Source: Leucoraja ocellata
Taxonomy: Eukaryota
Direction: 5' to 3'
DNA length: 64,000 nucleotides
Assembly (NCBI GenBank): GCA_036785375.1
Contig: JAWMAR010000084.1
Location: 1,364,001-1,428,000, forward strand
Part shown: positions 10,923 to 57,155 of the stretch, piece by piece
How the letters are laid out: each line of letters opens with the position of its first letter
How positions within the stretch are numbered: position 1 is the stretch's first letter
Notes under the pieces: model-generated
What the model was told of the DNA's origin: nothing
The model's input: the letters and a program-made list of their open reading frames with translations, nothing else
Databases searched by the model: none
Program-made: the position numbers and the translations under genes

Positions 10923-11015
10923 CTCTGAAGAAGGGTCTCGACCCGAAACATCGCCTATGCCTTCGTTCCATAGATGCTGCCTCACCTGCTGAGTTTTTCC
11001 AGCATTTGTGTCTAC
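10923..11015 (+). mobile_element. Penelope-derived short element with hammerhead core (single arm)
   Basis: 11-bp TSD CTTATATTCAT (10912-10922 and 11016-11026). It begins CTCTGAAGAAGGGTCTCGACCCGAAACATC. Confidence 0.72.
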
Positions 11016-16969: not shown

Positions 16970-19370
16970 TTTAGGTCTATTATTGTCACATGTATCAAGG
17001 TACAATGAAAAGCTTTGTTTTGCAGAAACAGGTCAGATATACCATACATGGATACAATCAAGTCAAATTCATGTACAACAGACAGAGGAAAGGAGAAGTG
17101 TTCAAGAAGGAACTGCAGATGCTGGAAAATCGAAGGTACACTAAAAAAGCTGGAGAAACTCAGCGGGTGCAGCAGCATCTATGGAGCGAAGGAAATAGGC
17201 AACATTTCGGGCCGAAACCCTTCTTCAGACCTCTTAGAGATCTGCTGCACCCGCTGAGTTTCTCCAGCTTTTTTTGTGTACCAGAGGAAAGGAGAACATG
17301 GGCAAGTTAGGCTGAGGGACCTGTTTCCATGCTGTTTCACTCTGTAAAGAGTGCAGAATATAATTCTCAGCATTGTAGCGCATCAGTGCCATAGACAGTC
17401 CAATGTCTTCAATGGGGTAGAGGTGAATCAAAATTATTTAAATAATCTGTAATGCATCAGTTCCATTGACAGTATCCTCGTTTATGGAAGGACTGGTCAG
17501 TAGCCTGATAACAGAGGGGAAGAAGATTTGCCTGAGTCTGGTTTTCAAGTCCAGAGTTTAAGCTTCTGTACCTTCTGCCAGAAGGGAGCAGGGACAGAAG
17601 GAATGACCAGGATGGTTACGTTGGCTGCTTTTCTGAGGCAGCATGGTGTAGATGGAATCAATGGTGGGACGTCTGGTCTGTGATGGACTGAGCTACATCT
17701 ACAATTGTCTGCAATTTCTCTTGGTCGAGGGCAGAGCTGATCCCAAACCAAGCTGCGATGCAACCTGGCAGTATGCTTTCTATGATGCATCTGTGGAAGT
17801 TTGTAAGAGCCACTCGAGACTTGCTGAATTTCCGCAGTCTCATCAGGAAGTAGAAGCGTAGGTGTGCCTTGTGTAGGAAGGAACTGCAGATGCTGGTTTA
17901 AACCGAAGATGGACACAAAATGCTGCACTATTTCTTGGAGATGCTGGATTGCCTTCTTGGTTGTCGCATAAAAGTAGTTGATCCACCACAGATCATTAGT
18001 AATATTATCGCCAAGGAACTTAAAGCTCTCAACGATTTTCACTTCGACAACATTGATGCTGATTGGGGCATGTATTCCACCATGACATCAATAATTTGGT
18101 TCTTTGTTTTTCTGACATTGAAGGAGAAGTGTTTATTGACCTGACACCATGTCACTAAGTTGACTATCTCCTTCCTGTACTCCGTCTCATCATTGTTCAT
18201 GATTTAGCGCATCACAGTGGTGCCGTCTACAAATTTGTAGATGCAATTAGAGCCAAATTGGGCCATAGAGTTGTGTGTATAGGAAGCACAGTAGGAAATT
18301 GAGAATTTGGCATTCTTGTGGGGCACTGAATGTCAACAAATATTGTGAAGGAGGTGGTGCTCCTATCCTCACTGATTGAGATCTGTGGGTTCGGAACGCG
18401 AGGATCCAGTAGCAGAGGGGGGAGCAGATTCCTATGTGCTGGTGTTTGGAGATGAGTTTGAATGGAATTGTGTTGAAGAACTATAGTTGATAAATAGGAG
18501 TCTAACTTGTGGTCTAGGTGTTCCGGAGATTAATTTAGGGTCGGGGAGAAAGTGTCTGCTCTGGGTCTGTTGCAATGGTAAGCAAATTGCAATGGATCAA
18601 GGCTGGCTGGGAGGCTGAAGTTAATGTGCGCCATCACCAGTCTCTCAAAGCACTTCATGATAGTGGATATCAAACCCACCAGACGATATGCATTAAGGCA
18701 CTCTAGCTTTTTTTCAGCGCTGGGATGATGGTGGTCTTTTTCAAATGGGTAAGATGTAAGGTGTCTATGAATACCTCTGCATACTAATCCACACGGGTCC
18801 TGGGTTTGCGGCCAGTGACTTCATCCAGACTAGTTGCTTTCCGCACATTCACTTTTGGTAAAGTTGGTTTTGGCACAGGCGCTCCTGAGACTGCCGAGGC
18901 AGGTGGCATTCCACACCAACCTTGGGTTCAAGGCAGGCATAATATGCATTGAGTACATCGGGGAGGGCCCCATTGTTGCCAGCGATACAGCCCGCCTTTG
19001 TTATAATGTGCAAGCCCTGCCACAATCTACGGGTATGCATGTCATTACTTTGAGACTCCGGCTTGGTCTGGAATTTCCTCTTAGCATTCTTAATGGCACT
19101 GTGATGGTGGTAGATAGATTTCTGGTACTCTGGGTCATTTGACTTGAATGCTGCAGACTTGGACTTCATCTGGTAGTGGACCTTGCCTGGTTCCTGTTTG
19201 GGGAATAGATTTATCATCATCTTCAGTACATAGTCCCCTACACAGATTGTCTGTGACAGCTGTAGCATAATCATCTAGATTAGCCTCAGACATCTTGAAT
19301 ACAGACTCGTCCACTGACTTAAAGCAATCGCAAAGGGTGTCATCTGTTTCCTTGTACCAGCAGTTTTATA
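16970..19370 (-). mobile_element. Degenerate Rex1/Babar-like LINE (about 2.4 kb) with nested insertions
   Basis: Encodes VESFKFLG, RLRKFSKSRVALTNFHRCIIESILPGCIAAWFG and RRLWQGLHIIT. Confidence 0.78.
17098..17281. mobile_element. Penelope-derived fold-back element
   Basis: 15-bp TSD CAGAGGAAAGGAGAA (17083-17097 and 17282-17296), inverted arms, and a hammerhead-like core on the - strand at 17201-17228. Confidence 0.75.
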
Positions 19371-20140: not shown

Positions 20141-20931
20141 ACGCTTTATTGCATGTTTTAAATCCCCCACGGGGTTAGTGAACCTATCCAGATGCTAGTC
20201 CCATTGTAAAACTGAGGGGTCGCCTGCCAATTACATCTGCAACATTTCCTCACATGTCACTGCATCACCAACATATGACTTTCAGAACATTTCAAGCTTT
20301 TGTTTTGTGACATTGCTTAAGCATAAATCAGAGTTTAAGCTGAGTGTTGAATGGAAGGAAACTGCCATCTAACAATCAGGAAATTCAGACACAAGTAACT
20401 GCAAATGCTGGTTCACAAAAAGGTACACAAAGTGCTGGAGTATCAGCGGGTCAGATAGTATCTCTGGAGAACATCGAAATTCAGCTTGTTATTTGTTTTT
20501 TGTAGACGTAGTGCCACCACAAGATGGCAGAGTTACTGCTTAATTGCATTGCTGGATGTTGAAATGACATGCTGAGAAACTGCTCTTAAAATTACGGCAG
20601 AGATGTTTATCACTGAACTGCTATGAAGTTCCACCAAAATACAGACCTTAATGTAGTTTTTGGCCAAGAGTAAAATTTATACAAATAAATCCAGTCCAAC
20701 TCCATTGTCAGAACTAACATCGTCATAATGTTTACATTGCATACCAATGTTATAAAAAGTCTCAACGTCGGATTCCCCATGTTCCACTCAACGTGGGAAA
20801 TGTGGCAATATTGTCTTTGTATATTGTTTCTAGGATTAATAAGTATAGCTTATACCTTAATAGTTCAATAAATGTATTAATTTTTATTTAATGTTGCGCC
20901 CTACATGCAGTAATGTATTCCAATTATTCAG

Positions 20932-21104: not shown

Positions 21105-23188
21105 GTAAGTATGCATTTAAAAGCTGGCGTTTACTAATTAAAGAAATTCTTAATTAATACTGTAATTTTCTTTTATTTCAAAGATTGTTAATCAGTGCAA
21201 ATATGATCACTTGGCCAACTAGATGGCTGCATCAATGTTCAGCTAGAGCACGTGGAAATATATTTAGCGGCCTCAGAATATAATTTGCAATTTAATGTAC
21301 TATGTTTCCAACACTTATCCTCAGACAAGAACTGCAGGTGTATTATTGTGACCAACCATATGGGGGAGCTCGGTGACCATGAGGAGAAATATAGGTCTAT
21401 GCATATTTTGTGTTCAATATTCTTTGTAACTAGTCGGTAATAATATCAATCGTGACTTTCCTTAGTGCAGTCGTCTTCTTCGACTTGGCTATCCCAGTAG
21501 AACATTTATCTTGTTTAAACATCGAATATGAATATCCAATATGAATTTGCTATCAGATTTCTGAGCCAATCACCCCTTTTGCACCCCCTTCTCGGAGATG
21601 TTGCCACGCATATATTCTCTTAGCTCTCCCTCATTTTGGCATTCTATTGTTGCACTTGAATATTTTTGCACTATTTCAGATTGCACTTCAATCTGCACTA
21701 TTCTGCTGCTTAGCATTCATCATATTTATTACAGTAGCTACAGTTAACCTCTATACTGTTTACTCTGAGCTTCATACAAACTAGACATTTCATTGACGCC
21801 AGTGTATATGATAAACTAATCTGAATCGGAACAATATGCATATGTTGATGCAAGTTAAGTTTGACTATATAGGGAATGGCATTGGTTTATTATTTTCAGT
21901 TGTAACATGATACAGTTTTAAAACCTTTGTATTCTATCCAGTGAAATAATATATGAGTATAATCAAGTCACTCACAAGTACAACAGGTAGTGCTAAGAGA
22001 AAAATACAAGTGTGACAAATATAGTGTTACAGCGTTAGTTACGGAGAAAGTACAGATTAAAAGAAAAAGTGCAAGGGCTACAATGAGGTAGGTTTGGAGA
22101 TCAGGACTGCACACTTAGTTTATGATGGACTGTTAAGTAGTAATAATTGTGGGGTAAAGGCGATTCTTGAATCTGGTGGTATATGCTTTCAAGTTTTTGT
22201 ATCTTCTGCCTGACAGGAAAGGGAAGAAGAAGGAATGTCATCCTTAGTTTCCTGAGGAAGTAGAACATTGATGTGCTTTCTTGGCCATAGCTTCAATATG
22301 GCAGGTCCAGGACAGATTGTCGGTGATATTTATGCTTAGAACTTGAAGCTCTTGACCATCTCCACTTTGGCATCATTGATGTTAACTAAAGCGTGTACAC
22401 CACCTCATTTTACTGAAGTCAATAACTAGCTGCTTCATCTTGTAGACATTGAGGGAGAGGTTGTTGTCTTGACACCATGTTACTCAGCTCTCTTGTTACT
22501 GGATTGCATCATGAATTGGGTTACATTGACTTCATTGAAGGGACTTTTGAACTTTCACCCCGTATAAAAGGATGCAAGTTCAACATTTTCAATTAAACGG
22601 GGTACCATTATTTTCTTAGTGCCTGGAGTGTGTAGGTTAAGCAAATGGATCTTGGTATGATATCAGAGTGGAGGAGTTGATCATTTATAATCAAGTACAT
22701 TATTTTATTTCGATCTTTGCATGCCTTGATGGTAGCGCACTTGTGTGGACTAGTGAGATGTATTTATTTTTAATTAAGCCTTTCAGGCGAAAGTTTAAAA
22801 AAAATCCTTCCTTAATCTAACAAATGCACATTGTATTAAAACACAAATTACTGAAAGGACAGTATCTGAAATGTTAACTTTTCCTCCACAGATATTACCT
22901 AGCCTTCAGAGCATGTCCTGCATTTTCTGTTAATATATTGGATTTGCAGCATCCATAACATTCTGTGTTAGCAAAATTGAATTGTTCTGACACGCTTGGG
23001 CCTGTATTCATAACCTTTGATCCGTGCCAAAATAATCTCCATTTGAGTAGATATGCATTGATAATGCTACCTTGGCAGCATCTTTTTGTTTCTAATCCTG
23101 CATGAGACATGTTTATGGGTATATTGTACTACATCTGTGTGTGCAATGAGCACTGTTGTGATTTACTAAGTGTGATTTACTTTTACAG

Positions 23189-23313: not shown

Positions 23314-24736
23314 CAAGAACTAGGTTCCCATAAAATCTGGATTGAAATTAACAATGTTCTAAAACTGTTAAGATTTAATTCCTGAACTAAACATACTGGT
23401 TTCCTAACCTTGAAAACAATTTGCAGAGTGTTATCAATCTGTTCAGGATAGTTTTGAATTAAAGCCATGCCAGTGCAACATAGTATATTGCTAAGTTAAA
23501 TTCATGTTTAATAGTTACCATTAAGACTTTTACATAGAGGTTATTTTATATTGTTGGAAATGAGCAGAATGTTAAAAGGACAGTGACATGAAATATCAAC
23601 TGTCTCTCCACAGATACTACCTAATTTTCTGAGCAAAGCCAGTGCTTTTCTTTAACATGCAGTGTTACAGCATCTGTAGTATTTTGAGTTTTTAGCATAA
23701 TTTAATGGCTGTGGTGAAGTGTATTCATTTCGTTGCATTAAATGTGGATAATTTTAATCCGTGCTTCACATTTTGTGCCTGTAACTTCAATTCAGCCTTG
23801 CTGCAGAAGTTTCATATTTTTGACATAAATCACTTAAGCCATTGCTTCAGGATGCAAATTACTTGCCAACTACGTATTAACTGTGAGCAAGTTTAATAGC
23901 TACAAGGTGGAAGTTCATTTTTCATTTTCATATCTAACTTCTAACTGTAATTAAATGCATCACATTTTTTTGGACCCAAATATCTTGCTGTCTGTAAAGA
24001 TAGCAGAGGCACTAACCCCTATTCAGACTCTGAAAAGTCCTCAGATGAGCACTTGAAATATGATCCGAGTTTAAGGATTAATAGAAGGGAAGGAGGATTA
24101 ACCTACCAGCTCTATTCGTAGGGTGGCAAAGATTTGATGAGCCAAATGACCACCACCTATGACATCGATTTTTATGTCTGTGGTTCCTCAGTATTTGCTT
24201 TCTTGAAACCATTCTCAATTTAAGTATTTTCTTCACCATAGATTGTAATAACTGAAGTATTATGTATTCTCTACATCTTTTTTTTGTAGACATGATGTGG
24301 ATGTACTGTGAAACGTCTCGAATCAGAGCTGAAATTACAATCACTGAACTAATAGTTCTGGCAACTTTTTTGCCTCCATATTTTCAGAAGCACTGTCGAT
24401 GCTGTGCATTGGCTTTGTGTTGCTGACTAAAATGCATAAAACAGAATTTCTGAATAATTGGGATTTTGATTAAATGACAAACTTTACTCATTGTAAACAT
24501 GACTATTGAAGCTAATTTTTTTAAAACTCTACGGGGGCATATTTGCATATGGCAATGAACTAGAAAATTACTTTTTCACATGTCTTGCAAGTGTGACTCT
24601 AGGTCTGTAACTAGTGAAGGAATTATGCATATTGATATTTATTTCATGTACATATTTAGAAATATTTATTGAGACTGATCACACAATTGTTTATTACATT
24701 GCATGTAACTAGATTTAAATTTTACATAAATGAACA

Positions 24737-27600: not shown

Positions 27601-27776
27601 TAGATAGACACAACATGCTGGAGTAACTCAGCGGGACAGATAGCATCTCTGGAGAGAAGGAATGGGTGACGTTTCGGATCGAGACCCTTCTTCAGTCACT
27701 GTCCCACTGAGTTACTCCAGCATTTTGTGTCCATCTTCGATTTAAACCAGCATCTGCAGGTCCTTCCTAAACTTTC
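27601..27776. mobile_element. Penelope-derived fold-back element
   Basis: 14-bp TSD CTTCCATTTATTCT (27587-27600 and 27777-27790) and inverted arms. Confidence 0.75.
27668..27695 (-). ncRNA. Minimal type I hammerhead ribozyme-like core
   Basis: The - strand reads CUGAAGA-A-GGGU(CUCG)AUCC-GAAA-CGUC. Both conserved boxes, stem II and a GUC triplet are present. Stem I is weak and activity is untested. Confidence 0.55.
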
Positions 27777-32130: not shown

Positions 32131-33020
32131 GGGAACGTGCATGGCTGGCGGCATTGTCGTGCTGCAGCACCCCAGCGCTGATGGAAATAGCACCAGCTCC
32201 TTGTGTTGGTGCTATTTGGAGCTTGCCTGCCCCTGCTGGTGGTGCCTGCAGCTTGCTGGCGCTGGACTGCAGGTGCAGTACCCCTCACTGCCGCTGGGGG
32301 TAATCGTGCGGGCCGTCGGGCTGGAGCTGTCACTCCTTCCACAGCTCTCCCGCCCCACCGGAGGAAATCGGGAGCTGCTGGGTTGACGTCATCGGCGTGC
32401 CTGCCGATGGCCAGCGCGTTGACGTCATCCGGGCGCGTCGACCTCAGCGCGACCTCGTCTCTGCTGACGCCCAGCACGCTGACGTCATCAGGGCGCGCCA
32501 TCCACATGGCGTCGGCTCGCCTCCCGAGGGCCCGAAGGTCGGCAAACGAGGCGTCGGTGAGTTGCAACCGAATATAGGCCGGCAGCAGATGCAGGTAGGT
32601 GTACTCGAACAACAGGCACGGCGTGTGCCCGTCTAATAACGCCACCATTTCCTTTAGGCGGGTAGATGGCCGCCGGTCGCCCAGGCCACTCATATGCAGG
32701 ATCCTACCTGCCCGCTCCATCCTACTTAGTCCGTAAATTTGGAGCAGGAGCTGTTTCAGGCCGAGGTATTTATTATTGTCCGGGGGGTCTGCGAGGAAGT
32801 CCGTTACTTCTTCCACCGCATCCTGGTCGAGGGCTCCCACCAGGTAATAGAAGCGGGTGGCATCGACCGTGATGCCCCGCAGGTTGAACTGGGCCTCCGC
32901 CTGCTGGAACCAGATGAGCGGCCGTGTGGTCCAGAAGCTGGGCAGTTTTACGGAGACCGCGTCCAGAGACAGGGTCGGGCTGGCGTGTGAGGAGGTAGGG
33001 CTTTGTTCTGTCTCCATCAT
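32103..33020 (-). CDS. gag: Gypsy Gag (305 aa) with CHCC zinc knuckle
   Basis: N-terminal [22 protein letters not shown], typical of CsRN1-type gag. C-terminal [18 protein letters not shown] fits C-X2-H-X9-C-X3-C. Confidence 0.9.
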
Positions 33021-33033
33021 GATGCCAATGGAG

Positions 33034-33047
33034 CGTCGGGGTCACCA
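33034..33047 (-). promoter_or_regulatory. Primer-binding site complementary to the tRNA-Trp 3' end
   Basis: The - strand reads TGGTGACCCCGACG starting 1 nt after the 5' LTR, complementary to ...CGUCGGGGUCACCA. Confidence 0.9.
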
Positions 33048-33648: not shown

Positions 33649-34396
33649 CGATTAGGAAAAGCGGAGATGCAACGAGACCTGGGTGTCATGGTACACCAGT
33701 CATTGAAAGTAGGCATGCAGGTGCAGCAGGCAGTGAAGAAAACGAATGGTATGTTAGCATTCATAGCAAAAGGATTTGAGTATTGGAGCAGGGAGGTTCT
33801 ACTGCAGTTGTACAGGGTATTGGTGAGATCACACCTGGAGCATTGCTGCAGTTTTGGTCTCCTAATCTGAGAAAAGACATTCTTGCCATAGAGGGAGTGC
33901 AGAGATGGTTCACCAGACTGATTCCTGGGATGTCAGGACTTTCATATGAAGAAAAACTGGATAGACTCGGCTTGTACTCGCTAGAATTTAAAAGACTGAG
34001 GGGGGATCTTATAGAAACTTACAACATTCTTAAGGGGTTGGACAGGCTGGATGCAGGAAGATTGTTCTCAATGTTGGGAAAGTCCAGAACAAGGGGTCAC
34101 AGTTTAAGGATAAGGGGGAAATCTTTTAGGACCGAGATGAGAAAAACATTTTTCACACAGAGAGTGGTGAATCTCTGGAATTCTCTGCCACAGAAGGTAG
34201 TTGAGGCCAGTTCATTGGCTATATTTAAGAGGAAGTTAGATGTGGCCCTTGTAGCTAAAGGGATCAGGGGGTATGGAGAGAAGGCAGGTACAGGATACTG
34301 AGTTGGATGATCAGCCATGATCATATTGAATGGCGGTGCAGGCTCATAGGGCTGAATGGCCTACGCCTGCACCTAATTTCTATGACTATGTTTCTA
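33649..34396 (+). mobile_element. Young CR1 LINE 3' fragment, inserted antisense in an older CR1
   Basis: Near-identical to 4526-5281 and 42466-43207, with CR1 C-terminal motifs and an octamer tail. Confidence 0.92.
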
Positions 34397-36857: not shown

Positions 36858-37045
36858 TGTTCAAGAAGGAACTGCAGATGCTGGAAGATCGAAGGTACAC
36901 AAAATTGCTGGAGAAACTCAGCGGGTGCAGCAGCATCTATGGAGCAAAGGAAATAGGCGACGTTTCGGCCCGAAACGTCGCCTATTTCCTTCGCTCCATA
37001 GATGCTGCTGCACCCGCTGAGTTTCTCCAGCATTTTTGTGTACCT
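36858..37045. mobile_element. Penelope-derived fold-back element (near-perfect palindrome)
   Basis: 15-bp TSD ACAGATAGAACCATG (36843-36857 and 37046-37060). Arms of about 75 bp fold at TTTCGGCCCGAAA. Confidence 0.78.
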
Positions 37046-38932: not shown

Positions 38933-40090
38933 TTGGTGCAACCAATTGCAGAGCATGTAATAGTTGCTTATGAGATTAAAAAAAAAACTATGTGGAATAA
39001 TTGTTGAAAATCAGTATGTTTGATATCACAGTTAATGTTTGTTAATGAGGACAAAAGCTGGACTGACCACATACAGCCGAATGGTAATGTTTGCATTGAT
39101 CACGTTAAGCAGGATTTGCTCAAGGTTATTATTCTAGCTGAGGGTAAATTTAGCGTGTGACATGATGAAACCAGCAGAAATTGCTTCTTCTGTTGCCTGT
39201 GCGTGGGTTTGACACTTGCTACTAACTATATCTTTTATTAGCCCACAGGAAAATAAAACTCCGTTGAGAGTAAAATAAAAAGAAAAATGTGCCAACGATG
39301 TGAATTATCGGTTCTGCAAATATTAATATCTATTTTTATCCAATGGCTTTTTATCTTAATATGAATTCGAAATTTGTCACAAGAATGCAGTGGAAGCTTT
39401 GACAATATTTGACAAATTATAGAAGTGGGTGTCAACTATTTAAATATGCACCAGAATAACTGGTCAATCATGAGCAACGGTGTTTTGATTCTAGACATAG
39501 ATTTTCAAGCCTCCATGAAACACGAGTTAAGTACTGAATGCATGTGCAGTTGTCTTGGCTGGAATTCAGGCATTGGTATGATTCCTCTCCTAAAATTATA
39601 ACATGGAGCGTCTGCCCTGCTGGGCTTGTGACGGCTTCAGTCTGAAAGTAAATGGCTGCTGACACATCGCCTCCACTGATTTGACCAAGGAGCTTCTTGT
39701 GGAAAAGTGAAAATGTTTCTTGTTTTCATCAGTTGAGAATGCACATGCTCAGCTTCCTCATTCACTTTTGAAAATGACTGTCATTATGCAGCAGGTAATA
39801 ACTTTATTTCTTTATCCACTTCATTACAGATTTCAAAAGTAATTTCATTTTCTAATCATGGTGGAACAATTAAATCCAATGAATGTTTCCTATTTCACTC
39901 TTGATTAAGCGGGACAGGCGGCACCTCTGGAGGGAAGGAATGGGTATCGTATCGGATCAAGACCCGTCTTCAGTAATGTTCAATTTTATGTGATATAGCA
40001 GCACGTACGTTGAAACTGTCCAGGACTGGAGGAATGCTCTAAAACGTTACAAGCTCTTGACTAATTTAAAGGTCACCTCAGACAGTCTTA

Positions 40091-42264: not shown

Positions 42265-43322
42265 GGGCGCCATAGTGGTGCAGTGGTAAAGTTGCTGCCT
42301 TACAGCGCCAGTGAGCTGGGTATGATCCTGACTACAGGTGCTGTCTGTACAGAATTTGTACGTCCTCCGTGTGACTGCATGGGTTTTCTCTGTGTGCTTC
42401 GGTTTCCTCCCACACTCAAAGACGTATAGGTTTGTAGGTTAATTTGGCTTCAGTAAAAATTGTAAGATTAGGAAAAGGGGAGATGCAATGAGACCTGGGT
42501 GTCATGGTACACCAGTCATTGAAAGTAGGAATGCAGGTGCAGCAGGCAGTGAAGAAAGCAAATGGTATGTTAGCATTCATAGCAAAAGGATTTGAGTATA
42601 AGAGCAGGGAGGTTCTACTGCAGTTGTACAGGGTCTTGGTGAGACCACACCTGGAGTATTGCGTACAGTTTTGGTCTTCTAATCTGAGGAAAGACATTCT
42701 TGCTATAGAGGGAGTACAGAGAAGGTTCACCAGACTGATTCCTGGGATGGCAGGACTTTCATATGAAGAAAGACTGGATAGACTCGGCTTGTACACGCTA
42801 GAATTTAGAAGATTGAGGGGGGATCTTATAGAAACTTACAAAATTCTTAAGGGGTTGGACAGGCTAGATGCAGGAAGATTATTCCCGATGTTGGGAAAGT
42901 CCAGAACTAGGGGTCACAGTTTAAGGATAAGAGGGAAGTCTTTTAGGACCGAGATGAGAAAATCATTTTTTACACAGAGTGGTGAATCTGTGGAATTCTC
43001 TGCCACAGAAGGTAGTTGAGGCCAGTTCATTGCCTATATTTAAGAGGGAGTTAGATGTGGTCCTTGTGGCTAAAGGGATCAGGGGGTATGGAGAGAAGGC
43101 AGGGATGGGATACTGAGTTGGATGATCAGCCATGATCATATCGAATGGCAGTGCAGGCTCGAAGGGCCGAATGGCCTACTCCTGCACCTATTTTCTATGT
43201 TTCTATGTCCCTAGTGTGTCAGAAAATGCTAGTGTATGGGGAGCGTTGTTTGGCGAGGATTCGGTGGGCCAAAGGTTCTGTTTCCACGTTGTATCTCTAA
43301 ACTAAACTAAAACTAAACTAAA
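42265..43322 (+). mobile_element. tRNA-derived SINE split by a CR1 insertion
   Basis: Head 42265-42465 has A and B boxes. Tail 43208-43322 ends in (AAACT)n. Confidence 0.8.
42466..43207 (+). mobile_element. Young CR1 LINE 3' fragment inserted into a SINE
   Basis: ORF 42504-43019 carries CR1 C-terminal motifs and the tail is TTTCTATGTTTCTATG. SINE sequence flanks both sides. Confidence 0.92.
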
Positions 43323-43677: not shown

Positions 43678-43765
43678 CACATCGTCTATTTTTTTGTACT
43701 GGCATTATTAAAATACGTTTCGAGGCGCAATCGAAAAACTTCATTGCACAGACTACAAGTTTAAA

Positions 43766-46700
43766 ATGAATAATTTAGATCAAAAAATTCTGTTTGGAAA
43801 AAACCCCAAAGAAAACAACAAAAAAAATGAACCTGGTGCTAACTTTGTATCTGAAATATGGTTCAAAAATCTCTCGAATAACTCGAATGCAGACTCAAAT
43901 TTTATTTCAGACAACACATTTAGGAGTATAGAGACTGGTAATCAAGTTTTGGCAGAGGATCATGGCCAACTTAAAGCAAATACTAGTCCCTCTGGGATTC
44001 TTGCAGATCCTGATTCTATAAATAATGATCAGCTTTTCGAACCAGGCATCATCACGTCCACAGTAAAGACATCATTTGAATCACCATTGTTTCTCAAGGG
44101 TGATGATAATCATTGTGATTCCTCTGGTTCTTACCATACTGCTGTGGGCTCCGATATTGGAGAAAATCTTAGTGATTGTAGTGGGCCATACGAAGATTTT
44201 GAAGAACTCTCTCCTGACCAAGACGAAAGTCACGAGATTTCACAGCGTTTTGGTGCTTCGCAGAAAGAACAAAGTGTTGACTGGTTAAACAGTTCTGAAA
44301 TTGAGACCAGTTTAAATGATTGCTCACCACCACCTCAGTTTAGCTGCAGGGAAGAACAAGAACAAATATTTGTGAGTAAACATAAGATGGAATTGCTTGA
44401 ACTAACTGCTGGGGGGGAATTAAATGGTGATATAAAGCCCTTTCAGTTACATAGCAGAAATGTGCATGATGTTAAATCTCATTACAAAATGGATGTGGGA
44501 TTAGCTGTAAAAACTGCTGATGAAAAGAATTCCTTTGGGTATGAAATCACATCTAGCCCTCAGGAAGAAAAGAATGCTTGCAGTAGCGATGTGGTAAGTA
44601 ATGATTCTTTATTAACTACGCACAGCAATTCAAGTGCTGAAGGAGAAGTCAACAAATCGCCTGAATGTGATCTAACAGGGCTGGGCACTAATCTACAGAA
44701 CTGTAAAGGAAATGGAGACCAACAGGTTCATTTGTCAATCACAGCTCAAAATAGCAAAACTGCAGAGAGAGGTAATGGAGTGCAGCTGTCGAGAAAACAG
44801 GAGGCTGAAGTGAGTACGCATGCTTCTCCAGGCTGTTATCTACATCTTGGTTTAAATGAAATTGAAGAAATGCCTCAAAAAGATAAGTTTGAAGACAGTG
44901 CAAAAAATAATTCAAGTGCTAATGGTAAAAGGAAATGTGCTGAGAGCATGAGTGAATCATCTAGTTTTGCAAGTGAGCTAGATGAAACAGATTATGAGGT
45001 TCGAAAATTGACTGCTCTGGCTTTTCGAAGTTTGTCCTGTCCAAATGATAATTATCTCCACATTTATAATTCTGGGGGTTTCATTGATTTCTCACCGGCT
45101 TTGTCAGAGGAATGCCACAATACAAAGAGTGTGTCGGTTTGTTCTGAGCCAGACTTTGTGGGCACAGCTAGTGAAACAGAGGATCCCAGTTATGCAGCCT
45201 ATGCTTTATACACTGGAGCTGAAGAAAGTAATATGTTTCTTGATGATCCATATGACAGAATGCAGTTTGAATGCATCGACGTAGCTGTAGAATCTCCAGA
45301 GAAAGGCAAAGATGTCAGAGCAAGCAGAACTGTCCCAAAACGTCAAATTGAACTCAGGAGACCACAGAGAAGTGAATTAAAAGTATTTACCTCGAGTAGT
45401 GCCATCAATTCCTATGCTTATGTTGGTCTTGGAGATGAAACTGGGAATGAAGAAGAGCGTTTGGAAATCATTGAAAGGACGCCTTATATAGAAAACGCAA
45501 TAAGCACAAATATCAAAAATAAAAATAGAATTCATAAGCAGCCACAAAGAGCAATATCTATAGATGGGCCTACACCACGAAACAAATTTGCATCCAGCCT
45601 TTTATCAAATGTGATATCCAAAAAAATGCTGTATGAGCAAAATCTCAAGGCAGAGCAGGAATTCAACAGGTTTGCCCGCTTCCCAATTACACGTAATGTG
45701 AGAAAGAAAGATCGAGCTCTTTTGCCAATTGTCTCACAACAAATACACCATGAAAGTTCTGCTTCAAAATCGGAATGCAATAACTCTCAAAATGTTGCTC
45801 AGAACAATTTGAGAAAGAATGGTTGTGAATTAACTGCTGATAATGCAGAGGAAAATGAAGGTTTGGGTCAAAAGTGCTGTTACAGTTCTTTAAGGTGCGC
45901 AGGTGGTCAAACTATCGGTGGACAGAACAACATCAGCCCTGATTGCTGCACAACCAATGTACTTGAGAATTACAGAGAAACACATATGGACAGCCAATGT
46001 GAAGCAAGTGCTGAAAGAACTCCAGGAATGAGTAGGGCAAAATCATGTTCCATGTTTAATAATCCTAGCATCAATGTATCTGGGGAAGAGAAGAACCTAA
46101 CTTCTTCATGCACTTCAGTAGGTAAATATAAAAATGGGAGTTGGCAAAATACTGAAGAAAATGCAGAATCAGACAATAGCATACAATGTGAATTACCATC
46201 ATATGAAGATAAAACAAGTGACATTCAGTTAAGTAAATCTTCACACCAAATCAACGCTTCAAGGAATATTCTTGCGCTAAAGTCATCAAAGATGCTACAC
46301 AACTCTCCAAAACCAAATGTTCAAAGAACCATCACATGCTGTGTCCCAAAGACACATTCTCTCACACCAGAATCCAACACTTCTGATCTTGACCCCAACA
46401 ATCAAACACTCCCTGTTTCACCTAAAGCCAACTGTGGCATGGAGAAAACTAACATTTCACATTGTAATATTGAAGACAACATATCCATCAAAAATAAAAC
46501 TAAGTGTCCTACTTATGTTAGGGATGTGAAAAAACTTGGTCAAAATAATAACTGTGGATTAACATTCTGTGCTACCAAAGGTAAATGTGATGTCCCCGAT
46601 GAGGTTTGTAATCCATCCATTATAAAGCAACCACTTCCAGAACCTCTCAACAAGGTCTCAATAGTTGACAGCATTTCGTCACCAAAATGTATTCAACGTC

Positions 46701-49534
46701 AGTCAATAGGTAGGGAAGTTGCCAAAGATGATAACAGCTATGTCACAGTTGGCAGGAAAGGTTTGATAAGCACGGAAAGTTCAGAAACATTAAGGTCATT
46801 TTCTTCTGACTTTAAATTGCCTATTCCATGTAAAAAGCAAGAAAACAATGGAACTTCTGCTAAAAGAATATGTAACCAAGACCACTTCACAAAGGACAAT
46901 GAGAATAATGTAGCTGAACCTTTGAATGCTTTCCCAAATATAGTAACATCTGAAAGGAAAATGCATGTCAAAACAATTTCAAATAATAAAGAGTCTAAAT
47001 CACCACCTATGAAAGTCCAGTTTGAAGAAGAAACTCTGAAAGCCGATTCAGCCAAATTTATGTTGAATAATAGAATTACTGATTTGGTAACAGGAGAAAG
47101 TAATCAACAAAATCAATTCCTTGAAGGACTGGAAAATCTCAATGCACACTCCAGTTCAACAATTGATGATACTAATTACGCATTGACCGAAAAACAAACT
47201 GATCAAGAAATTGAAAATGAGCTAGAAGGGAAAGAAATTTTAACAAATCCTAATTCAAACAAAGAAGATATACAAATGGAGCTATACAAGGATGAACCTC
47301 GAGAGATTCCAGAAAGAATGCAAAATCATGAAGATGAAAAGGCTACTTGTACCAAAATAGAAATGCAGAATCACCCACTCGGGGCTATTTGTTACAATAT
47401 TGAGCAGCTTGATCTGTCAATTGGAAAAAGCAGTCCTCAAGGTAATCAAGATAAATTGAAGAGCCATAATGGACTCTTCTGTAATTTTGCTGGAAGCAAC
47501 AAAAGTATAGGAATGTCACTCTGGAAAGATGATACTAATAACAATAGATTATCTTCCAATGACAAAGAAACACAAACACCATCAAGAAAAAGTAAACATA
47601 AAAAAGAACTTAAATTTAAACTGGAAAATCAAAAAACCATGGAAAATTCAACAATAGACAATAATGGCTTTGAACAATTATGTAAAACATCTAAACTGAA
47701 AAGAGGAATTCAAGTCAATTTAAAAGAGCAGAGCGAACTCATTGAAAATTCTGCTCCAAACAAAGATGCAAGCAAATTGTTACTCAATTATGTTGAAGAT
47801 CAGATAGCTCTTGACGGAGACAATCTGAATAAACTGGCTTCAGAAAGCAAAGATGATAAGAATGTAAGTGATATGCAAAGTGGGTTGCCAAATGAAGCAA
47901 ACTTTTTATTTAAATCTAGTTCAAATCCTAAGCAAATAAGATTATCACCCGTCAAACATAATCTTGATGAAGGGATCGATGATGGAATAGAAAGTCAGAA
48001 CATGCTAAATCGCGAAGCAGGCATCAAAATACAAGCTATTAAAACTAAGAACAATGATCTTGTAACTGAATTTATTGCACCCCAAAACACCGATAAAGTT
48101 GAAATGCTACCAAGAGCAGAAAGTGCCAGATTGACAGTTGTAAATGAATTACAATTGAACAAAGATAACAATAAAATGTTGATGGTTTCAGAGGAAGAAA
48201 AACAAAATCCTTCTAAAGAGTGCTCTGAGTCCGGCAATATCAAAACTGTAGATGAACTACTTTCAACTTTGAAAGTCCAGATCCCAAATGAAATCGGTGT
48301 ACCAGTTATAACCATCTCAGACAATGTTATTCCTGTGGAGTCATCCAATTGTTCTAAGACTATAAAAATTTCAGCAAATACATCATTTCCAGAAACTGAA
48401 GGTCAGGATGTTCATAATAAATTAGAAATTTCAGCTGCCATTCAGAATGCAGAAGTTAATAAGCCACTGGCTCCACAGACTCCTTCATGCTTCACAGATT
48501 TGAATGTGAAGTCAATCAATTCTAATCACCCTGTTGTTAAATCATCCAACAGTGCAACTCATGATCAAGAACAGCAACCCTCCTTTGAATTGAAAATGCT
48601 AGCAATGAACAAAGCTGTCACGCAAGATCCATCTCTTACATCAGCCCCAATAAATTATCTTTCCATTCCTAATGAAGAACACAGGCCACGTGCACCTCCA
48701 AAGAAGCAAGTACCTGCTCCTCCTCATTCATTAATTCACATAGCAAGCACTAGTCCTCGCCAGCAAAACTGGGAAACTTTAAATCCTCACAAACAGGAAC
48801 AACAAGCGTTGCCTCACCAGGGCCTTCGGGAGATGTTTTCGTTTGATACTTCTCTGCAGCATCCATTCTATGCCTCTTCTCAGGTACCAAATCAAGCAGA
48901 GTCTCATTTACTTCATTTTACACCAACCAGCCAAACTCCAGATCATGTGGACAAATGTTACCGAGTGCCTCAATCACCTCACTTGATGGACAGTCCCCGG
49001 CTGCCTTGCTTCCAATATCCAGAAGCTCACAAGAAAGTGCTTATTGATCCAGAGACAGGAAAGCATTACTTCGTTGAGGCACCAATGCAATCTCCACGCA
49101 AAATGCTGTTGGATCCAGAAACTGGTTGTTATGTCGAGGTGATAATACCTCAACAAACATACGGTGGATATTATCAAACATCATTCTCCCCACACGTTTT
49201 ATATCCAAACGCCTTGAGGCCTTCATTTATACCAACAATGCAATATTCTGACTTAATCTCAACACCTCTTGTGGCATACCCGGGTCCACATCCTGGGTCC
49301 TCTGAAGTACAAAACCAATCGAGTCCAAACAGCACAACTGTAAGTGTGACAGAAATGCCGAATCATAAAAAGGATATGCCAAAAAATCATTTTGCTGAAA
49401 CGAATTACATGGAAAGTACATATTCAGCTCCAATGAATGTGCCTGTAAATCCTAACCCAATTCGCACCGCTGCACAAGTAATATCCATCCATTCAAAATC
49501 TCGTGCAGAAGTTAAAGATAACTCTCGTGTTTGA
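43766..49534 (+). CDS. PROB1: Uninterrupted 1922-aa DUF4585-family protein, PROB1-like (C4orf54/C10orf71 paralog family)
   Basis: A 5.77-kb ORF. The C-terminal KKVLIDPETGKHYFVEAP...RKMLLDPETGCYVEV is the DUF4585 signature. Family motifs SELDETDYEVRKLTALAFRSL, FECIDV, RTVPKRQIELR and KFASSLLSNVISKKM are present. It lies downstream of and co-oriented with DNAJC18, as PROB1 does in human. The gene symbol rests partly on synteny. Confidence 0.8.
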   Translation: MNNLDQKILFGKNPKENNKKNEPGANFVSEIWFKNLSNNSNADSNFISDNTFRSIETGNQVLAEDHGQLKANTSPSGILADPDSINNDQLFEPGIITSTVKTSFESPLFLKGDDNHCDSSGSYHTAVGSDIGENLSDCSGPYEDFEELSPDQDESHEISQRFGASQKEQSVDWLNSSEIETSLNDCSPPPQFSCREEQEQIFVSKHKMELLELTAGGELNGDIKPFQLHSRNVHDVKSHYKMDVGLAVKTADEKNSFGYEITSSPQEEKNACSSDVVSNDSLLTTHSNSSAEGEVNKSPECDLTGLGTNLQNCKGNGDQQVHLSITAQNSKTAERGNGVQLSRKQEAEVSTHASPGCYLHLGLNEIEEMPQKDKFEDSAKNNSSANGKRKCAESMSESSSFASELDETDYEVRKLTALAFRSLSCPNDNYLHIYNSGGFIDFSPALSEECHNTKSVSVCSEPDFVGTASETEDPSYAAYALYTGAEESNMFLDDPYDRMQFECIDVAVESPEKGKDVRASRTVPKRQIELRRPQRSELKVFTSSSAINSYAYVGLGDETGNEEERLEIIERTPYIENAISTNIKNKNRIHKQPQRAISIDGPTPRNKFASSLLSNVISKKMLYEQNLKAEQEFNRFARFPITRNVRKKDRALLPIVSQQIHHESSASKSECNNSQNVAQNNLRKNGCELTADNAEENEGLGQKCCYSSLRCAGGQTIGGQNNISPDCCTTNVLENYRETHMDSQCEASAERTPGMSRAKSCSMFNNPSINVSGEEKNLTSSCTSVGKYKNGSWQNTEENAESDNSIQCELPSYEDKTSDIQLSKSSHQINASRNILALKSSKMLHNSPKPNVQRTITCCVPKTHSLTPESNTSDLDPNNQTLPVSPKANCGMEKTNISHCNIEDNISIKNKTKCPTYVRDVKKLGQNNNCGLTFCATKGKCDVPDEVCNPSIIKQPLPEPLNKVSIVDSISSPKCIQRQSIGREVAKDDNSYVTVGRKGLISTESSETLRSFSSDFKLPIPCKKQENNGTSAKRICNQDHFTKDNENNVAEPLNAFPNIVTSERKMHVKTISNNKESKSPPMKVQFEEETLKADSAKFMLNNRITDLVTGESNQQNQFLEGLENLNAHSSSTIDDTNYALTEKQTDQEIENELEGKEILTNPNSNKEDIQMELYKDEPREIPERMQNHEDEKATCTKIEMQNHPLGAICYNIEQLDLSIGKSSPQGNQDKLKSHNGLFCNFAGSNKSIGMSLWKDDTNNNRLSSNDKETQTPSRKSKHKKELKFKLENQKTMENSTIDNNGFEQLCKTSKLKRGIQVNLKEQSELIENSAPNKDASKLLLNYVEDQIALDGDNLNKLASESKDDKNVSDMQSGLPNEANFLFKSSSNPKQIRLSPVKHNLDEGIDDGIESQNMLNREAGIKIQAIKTKNNDLVTEFIAPQNTDKVEMLPRAESARLTVVNELQLNKDNNKMLMVSEEEKQNPSKECSESGNIKTVDELLSTLKVQIPNEIGVPVITISDNVIPVESSNCSKTIKISANTSFPETEGQDVHNKLEISAAIQNAEVNKPLAPQTPSCFTDLNVKSINSNHPVVKSSNSATHDQEQQPSFELKMLAMNKAVTQDPSLTSAPINYLSIPNEEHRPRAPPKKQVPAPPHSLIHIASTSPRQQNWETLNPHKQEQQALPHQGLREMFSFDTSLQHPFYASSQVPNQAESHLLHFTPTSQTPDHVDKCYRVPQSPHLMDSPRLPCFQYPEAHKKVLIDPETGKHYFVEAPMQSPRKMLLDPETGCYVEVIIPQQTYGGYYQTSFSPHVLYPNALRPSFIPTMQYSDLISTPLVAYPGPHPGSSEVQNQSSPNSTTVSVTEMPNHKKDMPKNHFAETNYMESTYSAPMNVPVNPNPIRTAAQVISIHSKSRAEVKDNSRV

Positions 49535-49775: not shown

Positions 49776-51892
49776 AAGGTTATGTTAAACCCTTTAATTA
49801 TAATTTGGGAGATCTGACTATTGAATCGACCATTTTGTTCTGGAAAGCAATTGCAATTAAAGAGTATAAATCTTAAATAATGTTAATCCTTGGCATACAC
49901 ACTGGACTCAATGATAATGATAACGGTGATAATGTATAAACTCTGTGCAGATAACACTCGTAGTCAGGATTGAACCCGGGACTCTGGTGTTGTGAGGCAG
50001 TAACACTACTGCTGTGCCACTGTGTCACCCTAAGTTATATGGACTCTGAGTGAATTGTAACTACCGGTCATGTAAGGGATGTCAGGAGGCAACATCAGCT
50101 GCAGTAAAGGCTAAATACATATTTTAATTTTTGGGTGGGTTAGAAGAAGCAGGAGAAAAATATTTTTACATCGGTGAACAAAGGATTAATGCAAAGGGAA
50201 AAACTATGCTTATTCTATACCTGATCACTTTACTCCCCCGTAACTGGGGCACATGCACTCCTGTGGGGTCTCCATATGTTTCCTGGTGACTTCGCTCTTT
50301 GTGGTTATTTTAAGGCACCTGATACACTTTTACATTTTACACTGCAGTTATTTTTTTACATCAGAGTCAAGGCAAGGGGGATTATTTTACTAAGAGGAGC
50401 ATAGCACACATATCTGACTCTAATGACACTTTCTGATAGGTAACAAACAGTAGGAGGAATGCTGTCAAAGTTTTGTCACTTACAGTGTTCAGTTAACCAC
50501 TGCCCTGCTGAAAGAGGTTAAGAAAACGCAGGGTTTGGATTAATTATTTGGCCTTGTGTTTGGCCTTATAGGACAATAATTGAGCTTCTGATAGTTTTTT
50601 CTTAATTTTTCTCAATATTGACATTTAATTTTATTTCAGCTGGATGGATTTTTGTTTTCTTCACACCAGAAATAATCTAATCGATAATTATTTACAAAAT
50701 TTAAATAATTCCACTGAAACAAGGCTGACACCACCATCTCTATAATATATAAACCTGTTAGAGTCCACATGTTTTCAGTGGGGTTTGAGTGAATTTGATA
50801 TTTGTTTGTGGCTCCTTAAGCATTTTTCATTTGCAGGTCCATGTCAATACATTCAATTTTCATGAAGGCTACAACGAGAGGACATAGATTTAAGAACCTG
50901 CGCTTGTTGTAGAGGTCGGTACAATTACAATGTTTAAAAGGACAGGTACATGGATAGAAAAGGTTAAGAGTGATATGGGCTGAATACAGGTAGATTGACT
51001 AGCTTACAAATATATCTTAGTCGGCATGTACGAGTTGGGCCAAAGAATCTGCTTCCGTGCACTATGACTCTAAGGGATAGAAACTGGATTCAGCTTTCTT
51101 CCATTGAATGCGTCTACAACTGTAAAATGATGCTGTTAGAGACCCAGCATATTTTCATGTAGTGCAATACTTTGTGACCAACCTGGTACAAAGTTAAATC
51201 CTTCGCCAGGTGACCAGATGACTATAAAAATGACTATTACCTTTTTATGCAGGTAAATAAAGAGCCAAATATTTTCATTCTTGGTTTAGGACTCCTCACC
51301 TAAAATGGATCCTCGATATTGATGTGTTTGGTCTAAAGAGCACTTGTTAGTGATTTATTTTCCCTTTAAAAACTTTCTGCTGAAGTCAGGAGAAGAGGAG
51401 TATTCCCACTGCACAGTCTTCCCAGCGGCAGCTGTCACCTCATGATCAATCCTCTCTTCCACTTACACCTGTGAAGGCTGCTGCTAACTAGGCAGGAAAT
51501 CTAAAATTGGGCACAACACTCAGATGCATTTTTTTCAGGAGGTATGGCAGTTGTGAGAAACTAATCCAAGTGTGGCCAAAGCTCAGCTTTGGGTGAGATT
51601 GCCACAGACCCCTCAATCATTTCTCGTTAGATTTTAGTGCCGAAAGCTTCTTCCATTTGTGATGCTGAACTTATTGTGTGAGAAGTGAAAAGGCAACAGG
51701 AAAGATGTAACAAAATCTTGTGGCATGGGAATGACAAATCCACAGTTCATCAGCTTGAAGAGCTGCTAATCCAGCAGTGTTGAGGTGCCTTTGTACCGTC
51801 TCTTGTGTTATACCATCACCTGCATAGTAAATTGTTCTTACTTTTAATAAAGAACACCATGTCACATTCTGTGGGATCTAGGTGAGTCAGTC

Positions 51893-52117
51893 GTGTTCAA
51901 CCAGGAACTGCAGATGCAGGAAGATCGAAGGTACACAAAAATGCTGGAGAAACTCAGCGGGTGCAGCAGCATCTATGGAGCGAAGGAAATAGGCGATGTT
52001 TGGGGCCAAAACCCTTCTTCAGTCTGCAGAAAGGTTTCGGCCCGAAACGTCGCCTATTTCCTTCGCTCCATAGATGCTGCTGCACCCGCTGAGTTTCTCC
52101 AGCATTTTTGTGTACCT
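51893..52117. mobile_element. Penelope-derived fold-back element
   Basis: 14-bp TSD TAGGTGAGTCAGTC (51879-51892 and 52118-52131). Arms of about 95 bp fold at CTTCAG-T-CTGCAG. Confidence 0.78.
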
Positions 52118-53844
52118 TAGGTGAGTCAGTCTATGTGATGTTTCTGAACTATTCACTTGTACAGTGTAGAAATCCAACATTTTGGCAACATACTTCAGTT
52201 CTTGAAATGTTTGATGCTTACAAGTGTTGCCTGAGTATGGAGGTGCAATACAGCTCCTACATTCACAGTATTTTCCAGTCAGTGCCTGCTCTCGTCTGTG
52301 AGAATGAAGGAAACATACTCGTGGTAGCTTTGTGAGGTATTTGACAGCTGGTTCCATGGTTGAAGAGTGCAAATGTTACAAAGAAGGCACGGGGTGTGCG
52401 GTTACAAGTGTTTTAGTAGTTCTGCGAAGTGGAAGTGGGTGGAGTAAACACGGGAAGAGTATAATGTAAATCATTAAAACAGAGTGAAAGAAAGTGGGGC
52501 AGGAACGGTGTGAGTTGTTGCAGATTTGAAGGTTTGTGCACAGATCAATTAAAGTGTTCTATTAGTCGAGAACTGAGATATAGATCCATAAATCAGTTGA
52601 TTCCTGCCTTGATAACCCAGTGAGATTAGTGCATTTATTTTCGTGGCGCTGCTGGGTCAATGATCCTGATCGTATGCATGAGGAGATCCTGTCATCACCG
52701 TATGAGGTGTCCCTTCTCTGTGTAAATGTCAGTGTTACTTGGGAAGACTTTTCATGCCCTGGGGTACAAAGCCCTTCCACTTTCTTCCAACCCCCAAGTG
52801 AACCTTCAAAGGTAACAACCAAGATGATCAAACAACACATTTGCCAGTCATGTTGTTTCGGGTCAAGATCTTCCTACTGCAGACCCCTTTTGAATAGATG
52901 CAACAAGGCCATTGTCTAACCCAAGCTGTATGAATTGCACAGCTTGTACATTGGTCATGAACACTGGCTCCCAGCATGAATTCCCATTGTCTATCTGACT
53001 GCGTAAATTGATGCATGTAAATTGCATCCACCCCCTGGGTGACTTTTTTCAATCTTACTGCTTTGAATTATCCTCACCTTAATTCTTGTTGGCCCTGTAA
53101 ACAAATTAGTCATTGACCAGAGCCAGTACTGCTTTTATCTGATTGTGAATGTTGTAAGTAAATATGTTTAAAGCTCATGTATTGACAAAATCTTTGAAAT
53201 TCAATGACAGCTGCCACTTGGGGGTATTGCAATTAAAGGTATGAATAATTAGTGTATGCCAGTGATATTTACATAATTGGTGCCGAGAATATAAAATATA
53301 TAAAATACAAAGGTTAGTGCAGCTCAATTTTCAGCGATGCATATGCTAACACAAATGAATCTGAAAGTTGCTTTATTACAATGAAGAGTTTATTTTTTAA
53401 ATATATTTAATTGGAATTAGCAGCATCATTTCATTAATGATGAATGGTTCTTAACAGCTACATTTTTGCATCTATTTGTGGCAATGTAAACCTTGGCAAA
53501 TGATTAAATGTGAAACATTGAGTTTTGTTTCAGGTCCAGTGACTCTGTGTTCTTGCCGTTACTGTGAGCAGTAACATTAAGTAATCAGGATTGCATTGTT
53601 CTGGACAACAGCGCGTGGGCAAGGATATGGCAGTGTCCATTGTTGTAGTTCACTGATTCCTGGATGTTCTGAAGGGAAACGATCAAGGTTATAGGATAAT
53701 CGTGTGCTGTGCTTTTGAGGAGATATTGTATTTCTCCCGATATAGCCATTCTATTGTCTCATTGTTGTTTTTTAATCACAGAACTTGTTACAAATGTGGA
53801 TTCTTGCTTAGAAAGTCACCTGCACAATGCAAATAATGTTCATT

Positions 53845-55559: not shown

Positions 55560-55871
55560 ATTTCTGGATCATTCTAGGGTTATCCTTGGAATTTGGCTGG
55601 GAAACTCCAGGCATAAATTACTCTGACACACAAACGTGACATCGATATCAGGGCACCCATGGAGAATGAGTAATATTATCCCAAGAACAATCATCATTGG
55701 ACAACTGAGAAATTTGGAACAATTTGGTCTCCCCAATGCTTAGATATCCACTAGGTAAAGTCAATGCTTCCCTTTGGTTTCCCCAAACCACCACCTCCTC
55801 GGCAACACTGTGCGCCTCTTATCCCACCACCTACCAATGTTGCTACCAACCCCATGAAAACCAATCATCAT

Positions 55872-56495
55872 CACATCCTCGGGGTACACATCTCGGAGGA
55901 TCTGTCCTGGTCCCTCAACGCCTCCAAGCTGATCAAAAAGGCGCAGCAGTGCCTTTACTTCCTGAGGAGGCTCAAAGCTCACCTGACCCCCCAGATCCTG
56001 ACCAACTTTTACCGCTGTACCATCGAAAGCATCCTGACCACCTGCTTCACGGTATGGTACAGCAGTTGCACCGTAGCGGACAGGAAGGCACTACAACGGG
56101 TGGTGAAAACCGCTCAGTACATCATCGGTGCCCCGCTCCCTGCCATGGATGCCCTCCACCGAAAACGGTGTCTGAGATGGGCCGGGAAGATCATCAAAGA
56201 CCTCTCCCACCCTAACCATGGACTGTTTGCCCTCCTCCCATCAGGGAGGCGGTACAGGAGCCTCAGGTCTTGTACTAGTAGGACGAGGAACAGCTTCTAC
56301 AACAACACTATCACATTGCTGAACTCGGAGTCCCGCCGATAGATTTCTCCAGTCTCTCCGTCCACATTGTTTGCTTATTCTGTATTTTTATTTCTATATT
56401 GCACTATTACTACGGACTGACGCTAAACTGCATTTCGTTGTACCCATACTTGGATCTGTGCAATGACAATAAAGTTGAATTGAATTGAATTGAAT
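55872..56495 (+). mobile_element. Rex1/Babar-like LINE 3' fragment
   Basis: Encodes LGVHISEDLSWS...TNFYRCTIESILT...LPSGRRYRSL and ends with AATAAA plus (TTGAA)n. Confidence 0.88.
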
Positions 56496-56997
56496 GACTC
56501 TTTGACCCTTCAGCCTTCCAGGTTTTCAGCTCTGAATTTCTTCTCACCCACTGCCAATTCAAGCTGTCAGCTATCAGGTTTCACCACAAATCTCCACACT
56601 CTTACAGTGACCAATCACCCAGCCAGTGAGCATGTCTTGTGGATGTGAGAAAAAACAGGAGGCTTCTGGGTAAACCCGTGCAATCACAATGAGAACATGC
56701 TAACTCCAAACTCACAGCACTGGAGTTCAGGATCGAACCTGGGTTGCTGGTGCTGTGAGGCAGGTGCTTTATTAACTGTCTTACAGTACTCCCCAAGGGA
56801 GATGAATTACTGAGTGTGGATTAAGACATCTTAATTTGTTATGAGAAGCAATGGTTGGAAATGCAGTCATAATTTCCACATCCATTCTCAATGGAAGGGT
56901 ACTTGCATCCTGGCTCAAGAGGTTTTTAAGGTCACTCTCGCAACTATAGGCCTAGCAGTATAATTTTTGCGATGCAGAAGATGCCAGAAATGATCGA

Positions 56998-57155
56998 TGA
57001 ATAGGTGACGTTTCGGGTCGAGACCCTTCCTGAGACCCAAAACGTGAATAGGTGACCTATTCCTTTTCTCCAGAGATGATGTTTGACCCGTTGAGTTACT
57101 CCAGCTTTTTGTGTCGATCTTTGGTTAAAACCAGCATCTGCAGTACCTTCCTACA
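56998..57155. mobile_element. Rearranged Penelope-derived element of the same family
   Basis: GACGTTTCGGGTCGAGACCCTTC followed by the opposite-orientation arm ending CAGCATCTGCAGTACCTTCC. Confidence 0.65.

Follow-up and report, generated by a model that had tools for sequence, protein, structure and literature searches.

At the locus under study, a 225-bp insert (51893-52117 of the 64-kb stretch of Leucoraja ocellata DNA analyzed here, hereafter the window) is flanked on each side by a 14-bp direct repeat. The exact 23-bp sequence at which its two arms meet occurs 1683 times genome-wide. Both arms carry a hammerhead ribozyme core, and both cores are mutated at catalytic sites: the G12 of the GAAA box has become C in the long arm (G12C), and in the short arm CUGA has become CUGC (A6C) and the first pair of stem II is broken. 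A transcript of this copy was predicted to fold into a single hairpin (-186 kcal/mol, z -21.6), whose 93-bp duplex would mask both cores and reduce stem II formation to nearly nil. We note that an inverted duplicate of the locus lies ~114 kb away on the same contig (L002, G000:C84:1529773), with a shared flank on the side that was read and 98% identity in the long arm.

All six copies and three partial ones named in a first-pass annotation were found in the window (Table 1). They had been described as usually a long arm plus a shorter inverted arm, which held for the fold-back copies but not for 10923-11015, a single short arm on its own. Distinct direct repeats of 11-15 bp, read as target-site duplications (TSDs), were confirmed on five of the six main copies, the exception being the copy at 56997. 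A third weak, old match, in addition to the two in the table, lies at 40473. By tblastn, no fragment of a Penelope open reading frame (ORF) was detected in the window. Other occupants of the window include a 1940-codon open frame with DUF4585 near its end (43712-49534, plus strand), which is likely a large host exon and lies 2.3 kb from the flagged copy. LTR retrotransposon-type frames occupy 28861-33041 on the minus strand, one gag-like (312 aa, DUF7041) and one of 1116 aa with protease, reverse transcriptase (RT), RNase H, and integrase domains in Gypsy order. Fragments judged by eye to be LINE-like RT C-termini lie at 4709-5362, 33780-34301, 42492-43019, and 55755-56342.

Table 1. Features of the flagged locus and other arm-bearing copies in the 64-kb window; paired TSD positions are those of the left and right repeat.
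Feature	Position	Strand	Direct repeats
Left TSD of flagged copy, 14 bp	51879..51892	+	14 bp, 51879/52118
Long arm, 131 bp, from hammerhead front edge to end of ~35-bp tail; element 3' end	51893..52023	-	
Junction at TCAG-T-CTGA quasi-palindrome	52019..52027	.	
Short arm, 94 bp, tail absent	52024..52117	+	
Right TSD of flagged copy, 14 bp	52118..52131	+	
Solo short arm, ctcg type, begins at CUGA box	10923..11015	+	11 bp, 10912/11016
Fold-back: long arm on minus (17230-17098), truncated short arm (17238-17281)	17098..17281	-	15 bp, 17083/17282
Tail-end fragment	17871..17930	-	TSD looked for, none found
Older truncated arm	20390..20471	-	9-bp direct repeat possible
Very old weak arm-like match, E 4e-4	22853..22953	+	
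Very old weak arm-like match, E 1.4e-3	23581..23680	+	
Fold-back, ctcg type: short arm and core on minus, truncated long arm on plus	27601..27776	.	14 bp, 27587/27777
Fold-back joined at stem II quasi-palindrome, CUGA box absent	36858..37045	.	15 bp, 36843/37046
Decayed partial arm	39904..39974	-	
Old fold-back: 40-bp inverted arm plus long arm, broken core	56997..57150	.	TSD absent

Positions within an arm are numbered from the C of the CUGA box (0), which places the predicted cut before +28. A degenerate hammerhead 28-mer, searched with up to 3 mismatches, matched six sites in the window and none in shuffled sequence. These matches support the CTGAAGA/stem II/GAAA/GUC core that had been proposed, but only one of the six (27668-27695, with a G-U wobble in stem II) retains an unchanged core with GUC, and CUGANGA is lacking from 36858-37045, where the arms join inside stem II. 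A search of Rfam returned no family at its gathering score and no hammerhead family at E<=10. At the level of the family consensus, the assignment to the minimal type I hammerheads of Penelope-like elements was borne out, with CUGANGA, stem II, GAAA, and NUH in order and a palindromic helix III. The two subfamilies first recognized (ctcg and ttcg loops) turned out to be two among several. Across 223 arms, core boxes were better conserved than flanks at non-CpG positions (0.94 vs 0.86), a figure biased upward, since the arms had been selected by their match to the beginning of the model; among cluster consensuses, 1 of 11 core columns varied, vs 23 of 78 others.

The family resembles published minimal type I hammerheads of Penelope-like elements in its CUGANGA box, extra nucleotide before stem II, G10.1-C11.1 pair, GAAA box, and palindromic 15.2-16.2, as well as in having single motifs that derive from truncated elements and are dispersed by the thousands, some of them in opposite-strand pairs. 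It is unlike them in that helix I has just 2 bp plus a possible outer stem and in that the cut site reads GUU in the youngest subfamily. Such dispersed motifs are already known to derive from truncated Penelope-like copies (PMC4209133). Energy predictions gave -3.1 to -4.1 kcal/mol for an intermolecular helix III; for the monomer, the active fold reached -3.2 vs -6.7 kcal/mol for the minimum free energy structure, with a stem II pair probability of 0.05. By these models, the palindromic helix III would suit a dimer, helix I would be weak, and the monomer would not adopt the active fold. In the fold-back copies, the head-to-head arms place the two cores on opposite strands, so these cannot form the hammerhead dimer within one transcript, and masking of the sense core by the hairpin is predicted as well. 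At the 17098 copy, which has a short second arm, stem II is predicted to be still possible (0.53). We also considered an intron ending in CAG directly ahead of a T before the core, with helix I completed by splicing as in D. virilis, and found no support for it, as no such joint occurred among the joints listed from three RNA runs of a related organism, a listing that left out 71 weaker ones.

These repeats very likely represent 3' ends, truncated on their 5' side, of an autonomous Penelope-like retrotransposon of Neptune type, and their hairpins probably formed anew at each insertion rather than being copied from a hairpin master. The ~130-bp unit corresponds to the 3' end of the element, that is, its pLTR with the hammerhead, plus a tail. 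Among the 30 best genomic long-arm matches, 10 continue upstream through a pyrimidine tract; when these were read further, eight reached the endonuclease end of an ORF, one reached the RT, and one was not seen to reach an ORF. The endonuclease piece scored above the Pfam cut-off for GIY-YIG. Searching the genome with the RT piece gave 43,735 first-look candidates, and many of the 150 that were scored lay in long open frames. We fetched 20 among the loci with the longest frames, and 19 of these have an arm immediately after the ORF, most often with its end at ~+90 to +95 and in the remaining cases at ~+118 to +130. At one locus (L105), the frame runs unbroken for 1264 aa and includes a CX4CX2C linker ahead of the GIY-YIG domain (Pfam RVT_1, E 7e-6; GIY-YIG, E 0.025; both below cut-off). 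The parent protein has 2422 homologues at E<=1e-30, of which those listed carry RVT_1 and some GIY-YIG, and its nearest named relatives come from sharks and rays (63-73% identity). A Penelope-like enzyme that shares the terminus of the repeat, as the first-pass annotation had anticipated, therefore exists in full-length RT plus GIY-YIG copies. By contrast, the proposal of a distinct non-autonomous fold-back family was not supported: the unit is the terminal piece of an autonomous element, the junctions are heterogeneous, and the arms of a copy share locus-private variants.

Long and tiny insertions have a common anatomy, consisting of an inverted arm with the tail, a sense arm without it, and one TSD around the whole unit, mostly 9-17 bp in length. 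In a 5.7-kb copy (L104), the order is TSD, inverted tailed arm, partial tandem, ORF, short arm, and TSD, and the inverted arm is 100% identical to the copy's own 3' end and 96.7% identical to its own inner pLTR. The pLTR as a partial tandem overlapping the ORF start was seen in this copy and in L258/259 and L267/268. A zinc-finger-like CX2-5CxxC linker lies between RT and endonuclease. This linker, which Neptune shares with Nematis, is defined as a Neptune-clade criterion in PMC8557442, and the clade placement proposed here rests on the motif in our translations, not on a tree. According to PMC8557442 and PMC3846280, Neptune and Nematis elements with an endonuclease likewise have a single ORF, RT with a C-terminal GIY-YIG domain, the CX4CX2C linker, heavy 5' truncation, partial tandems, and short TSDs. 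The same papers describe an adjacent inverted 5'-truncated copy, a 30-40-bp tail at one end, and palindromes at inverted junctions, and treat the inverted pLTR, tail, and palindromic joints as standard. Inverted pLTRs, tails, palindromic junctions, and minimal hammerheads are thus all already published for Penelope-like elements. What differs from these descriptions is the very large number of minimal insertions, along with 5' ends that pile up sharply at the hammerhead front edge. Our literature search found no description of the present family or of such a pile-up, and the supplements of these papers may hold shark or ray hammerheads or Penelope-like families. No RNA record was listed as containing the element. 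In two single-cell runs (X22, X23), reads over the endonuclease region of L105 (2200-3000) were mostly antisense to the element, which internal priming may explain.

To gauge abundance, we sampled 120 stretches of 10 kb (1.2 Mb), picked by position from the 80 largest contigs, with a profile built from 99 arms. This gave 570 arm matches and none in a control of reversed DNA. Crude scaling to the 3.44-Gb genome suggests ~1.6 million arms and ~0.3 million hairpins. Exact matches to two 34-mers from young subfamilies number 20,162 and 19,216, vs only 250 for a 31-mer just past the tail. Paired arms were head-to-head in 110 cases and tail-to-tail in eight; the former comprised 74 long-short, nine short-short, and six long-long pairs, and 21 with a damaged end. 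Exact TSDs of at least 8 bp bounded 30 of 115 pairs, a set that includes the window's five (control mean, 0.8), and exact TSDs of at least 10 bp bounded 31 of 214 evaluable solo arms (control, 6.85). Where a copy contains the ORF start, it is often a mini-tandem, roughly 190-470 bp in length. In these partial tandems of pLTR and ORF start (L260, L266, L269-271, L274-277, L278/279), a 3' end at +194 to +300 jumps to -189 to +29; some contain two or three identical units, as from circular templates, and mini-tandems could serve as small donors. An internal piece of the arm also recurs as short tandem repeats of 66 bp (L017, L021, L262/263).

The fold-back junctions vary between copies and favor two self-complementary words, TCAG-T-CTGA at the front edge (the 1683 exact cases above) and a word in stem II, whose 51-bp junction accounts for 43 of the first 50 of 5621 matches. 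Even copies joined at an identical junction fall in different subfamilies, and the arms of any one copy are usually of one type. Rare variants were common to both arms nine times in 35 loci after five duplicates were dropped (permutation mean, 0.51; maximum, 4 in 2000 permutations) and three times in 15 loci (mean, 0.28; maximum, 3); arm distance within a copy was half that between copies. Variable, palindrome-favoring junctions and private variants shared between arms together indicate that hairpins are likely made anew at each insertion, although gene conversion between arms could also account for the shared variants, and the recurrence of two junction types (1683 cases and most of the 5621) could also be obtained from a master. 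Fold-backs with arms of different types (L290, L291, L294, L302, L322) require two templates or conversion. A non-autonomous fold-back family would be expected to have one fixed junction and arm-specific differences shared across copies, and neither was observed.

The alternative of a true non-autonomous family, copied as a unit by a Penelope enzyme, draws what strength it has from the hairpins joined at stem II. Their 51-bp junction recurs in 43 of the first 50 fold-backs listed, 18 of these with a TCC/GGA center and three with TGC/GCA, and 45 of the same 50 lie within 17.0-25.4 Mb of contig C1, whereas linear arms are evenly spread along that contig. However, TCC/GGA is found with four or more arm types and in either orientation relative to the long arm, the arms of a copy share private variants, and stem II-joined TCC/GGA hairpins lack the CUGA box. 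In addition, linear arms with TCC (816, vs 32,396 with GCC) cluster in the same regions as the stem II-joined hairpins (G000:C1:17.0-25.4 Mb; L288-L327), which are of the type seen at 36858-37045. An edited hairpin RNA would leave an ADAR-type A-to-G scar on one strand, and none that was convincing occurred in 170 fold-backs (transitions, 281 vs 305); four old copies flagged in this test were mixed or of CpG type. We consider such a family improbable, even if restricted to the stem II-joined TCC/GGA hairpins.

A single master for the TCC/GGA hairpins was rejected because of the several arm types and both orientations. A GNA triloop as the cause was likewise set aside as a weak lead, since the closing pair here is G:C, which is less stable by about 3 kcal/mol (PMC3201870). 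Two duplicate loci (L306, L310) differ at the center, which points to change after insertion, and three listed pairs have TCC on both arms, which points to conversion or a TCC template. Deletion between the two 15-bp direct repeats contained in a front-edge hairpin could also produce the stem II-joined form at a later stage.

We mapped arm starts in a set of young arms from contig C1 (60 fetched, seven duplicates dropped, 53 retained). Twenty-three begin at -6 to +10, another 23 beyond -160, three in between, two from a single locus at +25 to +31, and two elsewhere. Similarly, 22 of 31 TSD-bounded solo copies begin at -34 to +8 and none at +25 to +32. These ends bear directly on the idea that the hammerhead cuts the template RNA and so defines or mobilizes short elements in a retrozyme-like cycle. 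The better conservation of the core boxes, a selection-biased figure, would fit such a cycle, as would a fold-back (L231/L232, G000:C1:335883) whose arms both begin exactly at the predicted cut site (+28) and a junction from 232 to 29 that falls at the cut site on both arms of L278/L279. Yet the former is one among the first 50 of 5621 matches, starts at the cut site were seen in just 2 of 53 young arms vs 23 around the front edge, and the copies are not head-to-tail arrays cut at that site. Moreover, hammerhead mutants of an Anolis element left insertion in vitro unchanged (PMC11167929). End mapping largely refutes the retrozyme-like cycle for the short copies, and we regard it as highly improbable. 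Animal non-LTR retrozymes, as described in bioRxiv 10.64898/2026.07.22.740005, are also pLTR-derived and non-coding with a type I hammerhead, and our mini-tandems resemble them. The window copies differ, being solo or head-to-head rather than head-to-tail and having ends away from the cut site. Head-to-tail units each carrying a complete hammerhead, as in these retrozymes, were absent from the window, and mini-tandems elsewhere are rare.

The pile-up of starts at the front edge allows two readings under the same parent element. One is that RT stalls at the C-rich tract upstream of the hammerhead and that the inverted arm forms by snap-back self-priming, or from an antisense template as proposed in PMC3846280. 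A long C/U run does lie directly upstream, junctions sit at quasi-palindromes, arms diverge half as much within copies as between them, and self-priming has been inferred from palindromic junctions in rotifer elements (PMC3846280). Still, snap-back alone does not account for the end of the second arm at the other RT start site (long plus short in 74 of 110 pairs), for the nearly equal numbers of pairs with the long or the short arm truncated, or for pairs whose arms differ in type. We judge this reading somewhat unlikely, if clearly live.

The other reading is that cDNAs run off at an RNA start located at the front edge. Cap-derived G was in excess at neither the predicted start (4 of 13, p=0.54) nor neighboring positions (10 of 21 and 6 of 12; p=0.08 and 0.13), none of these being significant. 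RNA of a related organism contained no pile of read starts at the front edge, with reads mostly from read-through copies and so uninformative on autonomous expression. Only 3 of 16 jump points in mini-tandems fall at -5 to +2. Neither cap-G nor read starts directly support an RNA start at the front edge, so stalling at the C-rich tract with snap-back priming stays in play.

A precedent for priming at both target ends comes from the Poseidon element PAc of Anolis. According to PMC11167929, RT begins in vitro at two internal sites that bracket the tail, both target strands are extended, RNA downstream of the start site is required, and the hammerhead is dispensable. The present element is similar in having two 3' ends that bracket the tail and a hammerhead near the junction of pLTR and ORF, although PAc belongs to another clade and here the first ATG of the ORF lies past the tail, not at stem II. 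Carrying two-end priming over from the Anolis element, we propose that the endonuclease would make a staggered cut that yields the TSD, and that both target ends would prime RT internally, one at the tail end (~+130) and one ~35 nt inside it (~+93). The cDNAs would often stop at the front edge, most likely because the template RNA begins there (at an initiator-like TCAGTCT). Tiny copies, or stumps, of 95-130 bp would then be run-off products of the 5' pLTR, and long copies would need tandem or circular templates. Because cDNAs of the same polarity could pair only at palindromic words, the head-to-head joint would be fixed. The hammerhead would be a passenger in the stumps, which, lacking the sequence past the tail, are probably dead ends.

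Taken in full, the run-off proposal holds that one ribonucleoprotein primes both target ends in the 5' pLTR, that its cDNAs run off at the front-edge RNA start as strong-stop products, and that they join via the ribozyme palindromes. It further holds either that a one-base variant giving a GGA loop in the cDNA raises fold-back formation by an order of magnitude or that hairpin tips are a regional hot spot of mutation. We offer this combination tentatively and consider it unlikely as a whole. If the strong-stop reading is true, the stumps would be a million-copy record of Penelope-like integration.

The family itself is ordinary, and its value lies in the large natural data set it offers on how Penelope-like elements make inverted pLTRs and tails. 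The model of two-ended priming and run-off can be tested directly on this family, given its two sharp 3' ends, the sharp pile-up of 5' ends, the palindromic joints, and young ORFs that are intact. For the host, the ~0.3 million near-perfect hairpins of ~90 bp estimated by crude scaling could supply double-stranded RNA and cruciform DNA in large amounts.
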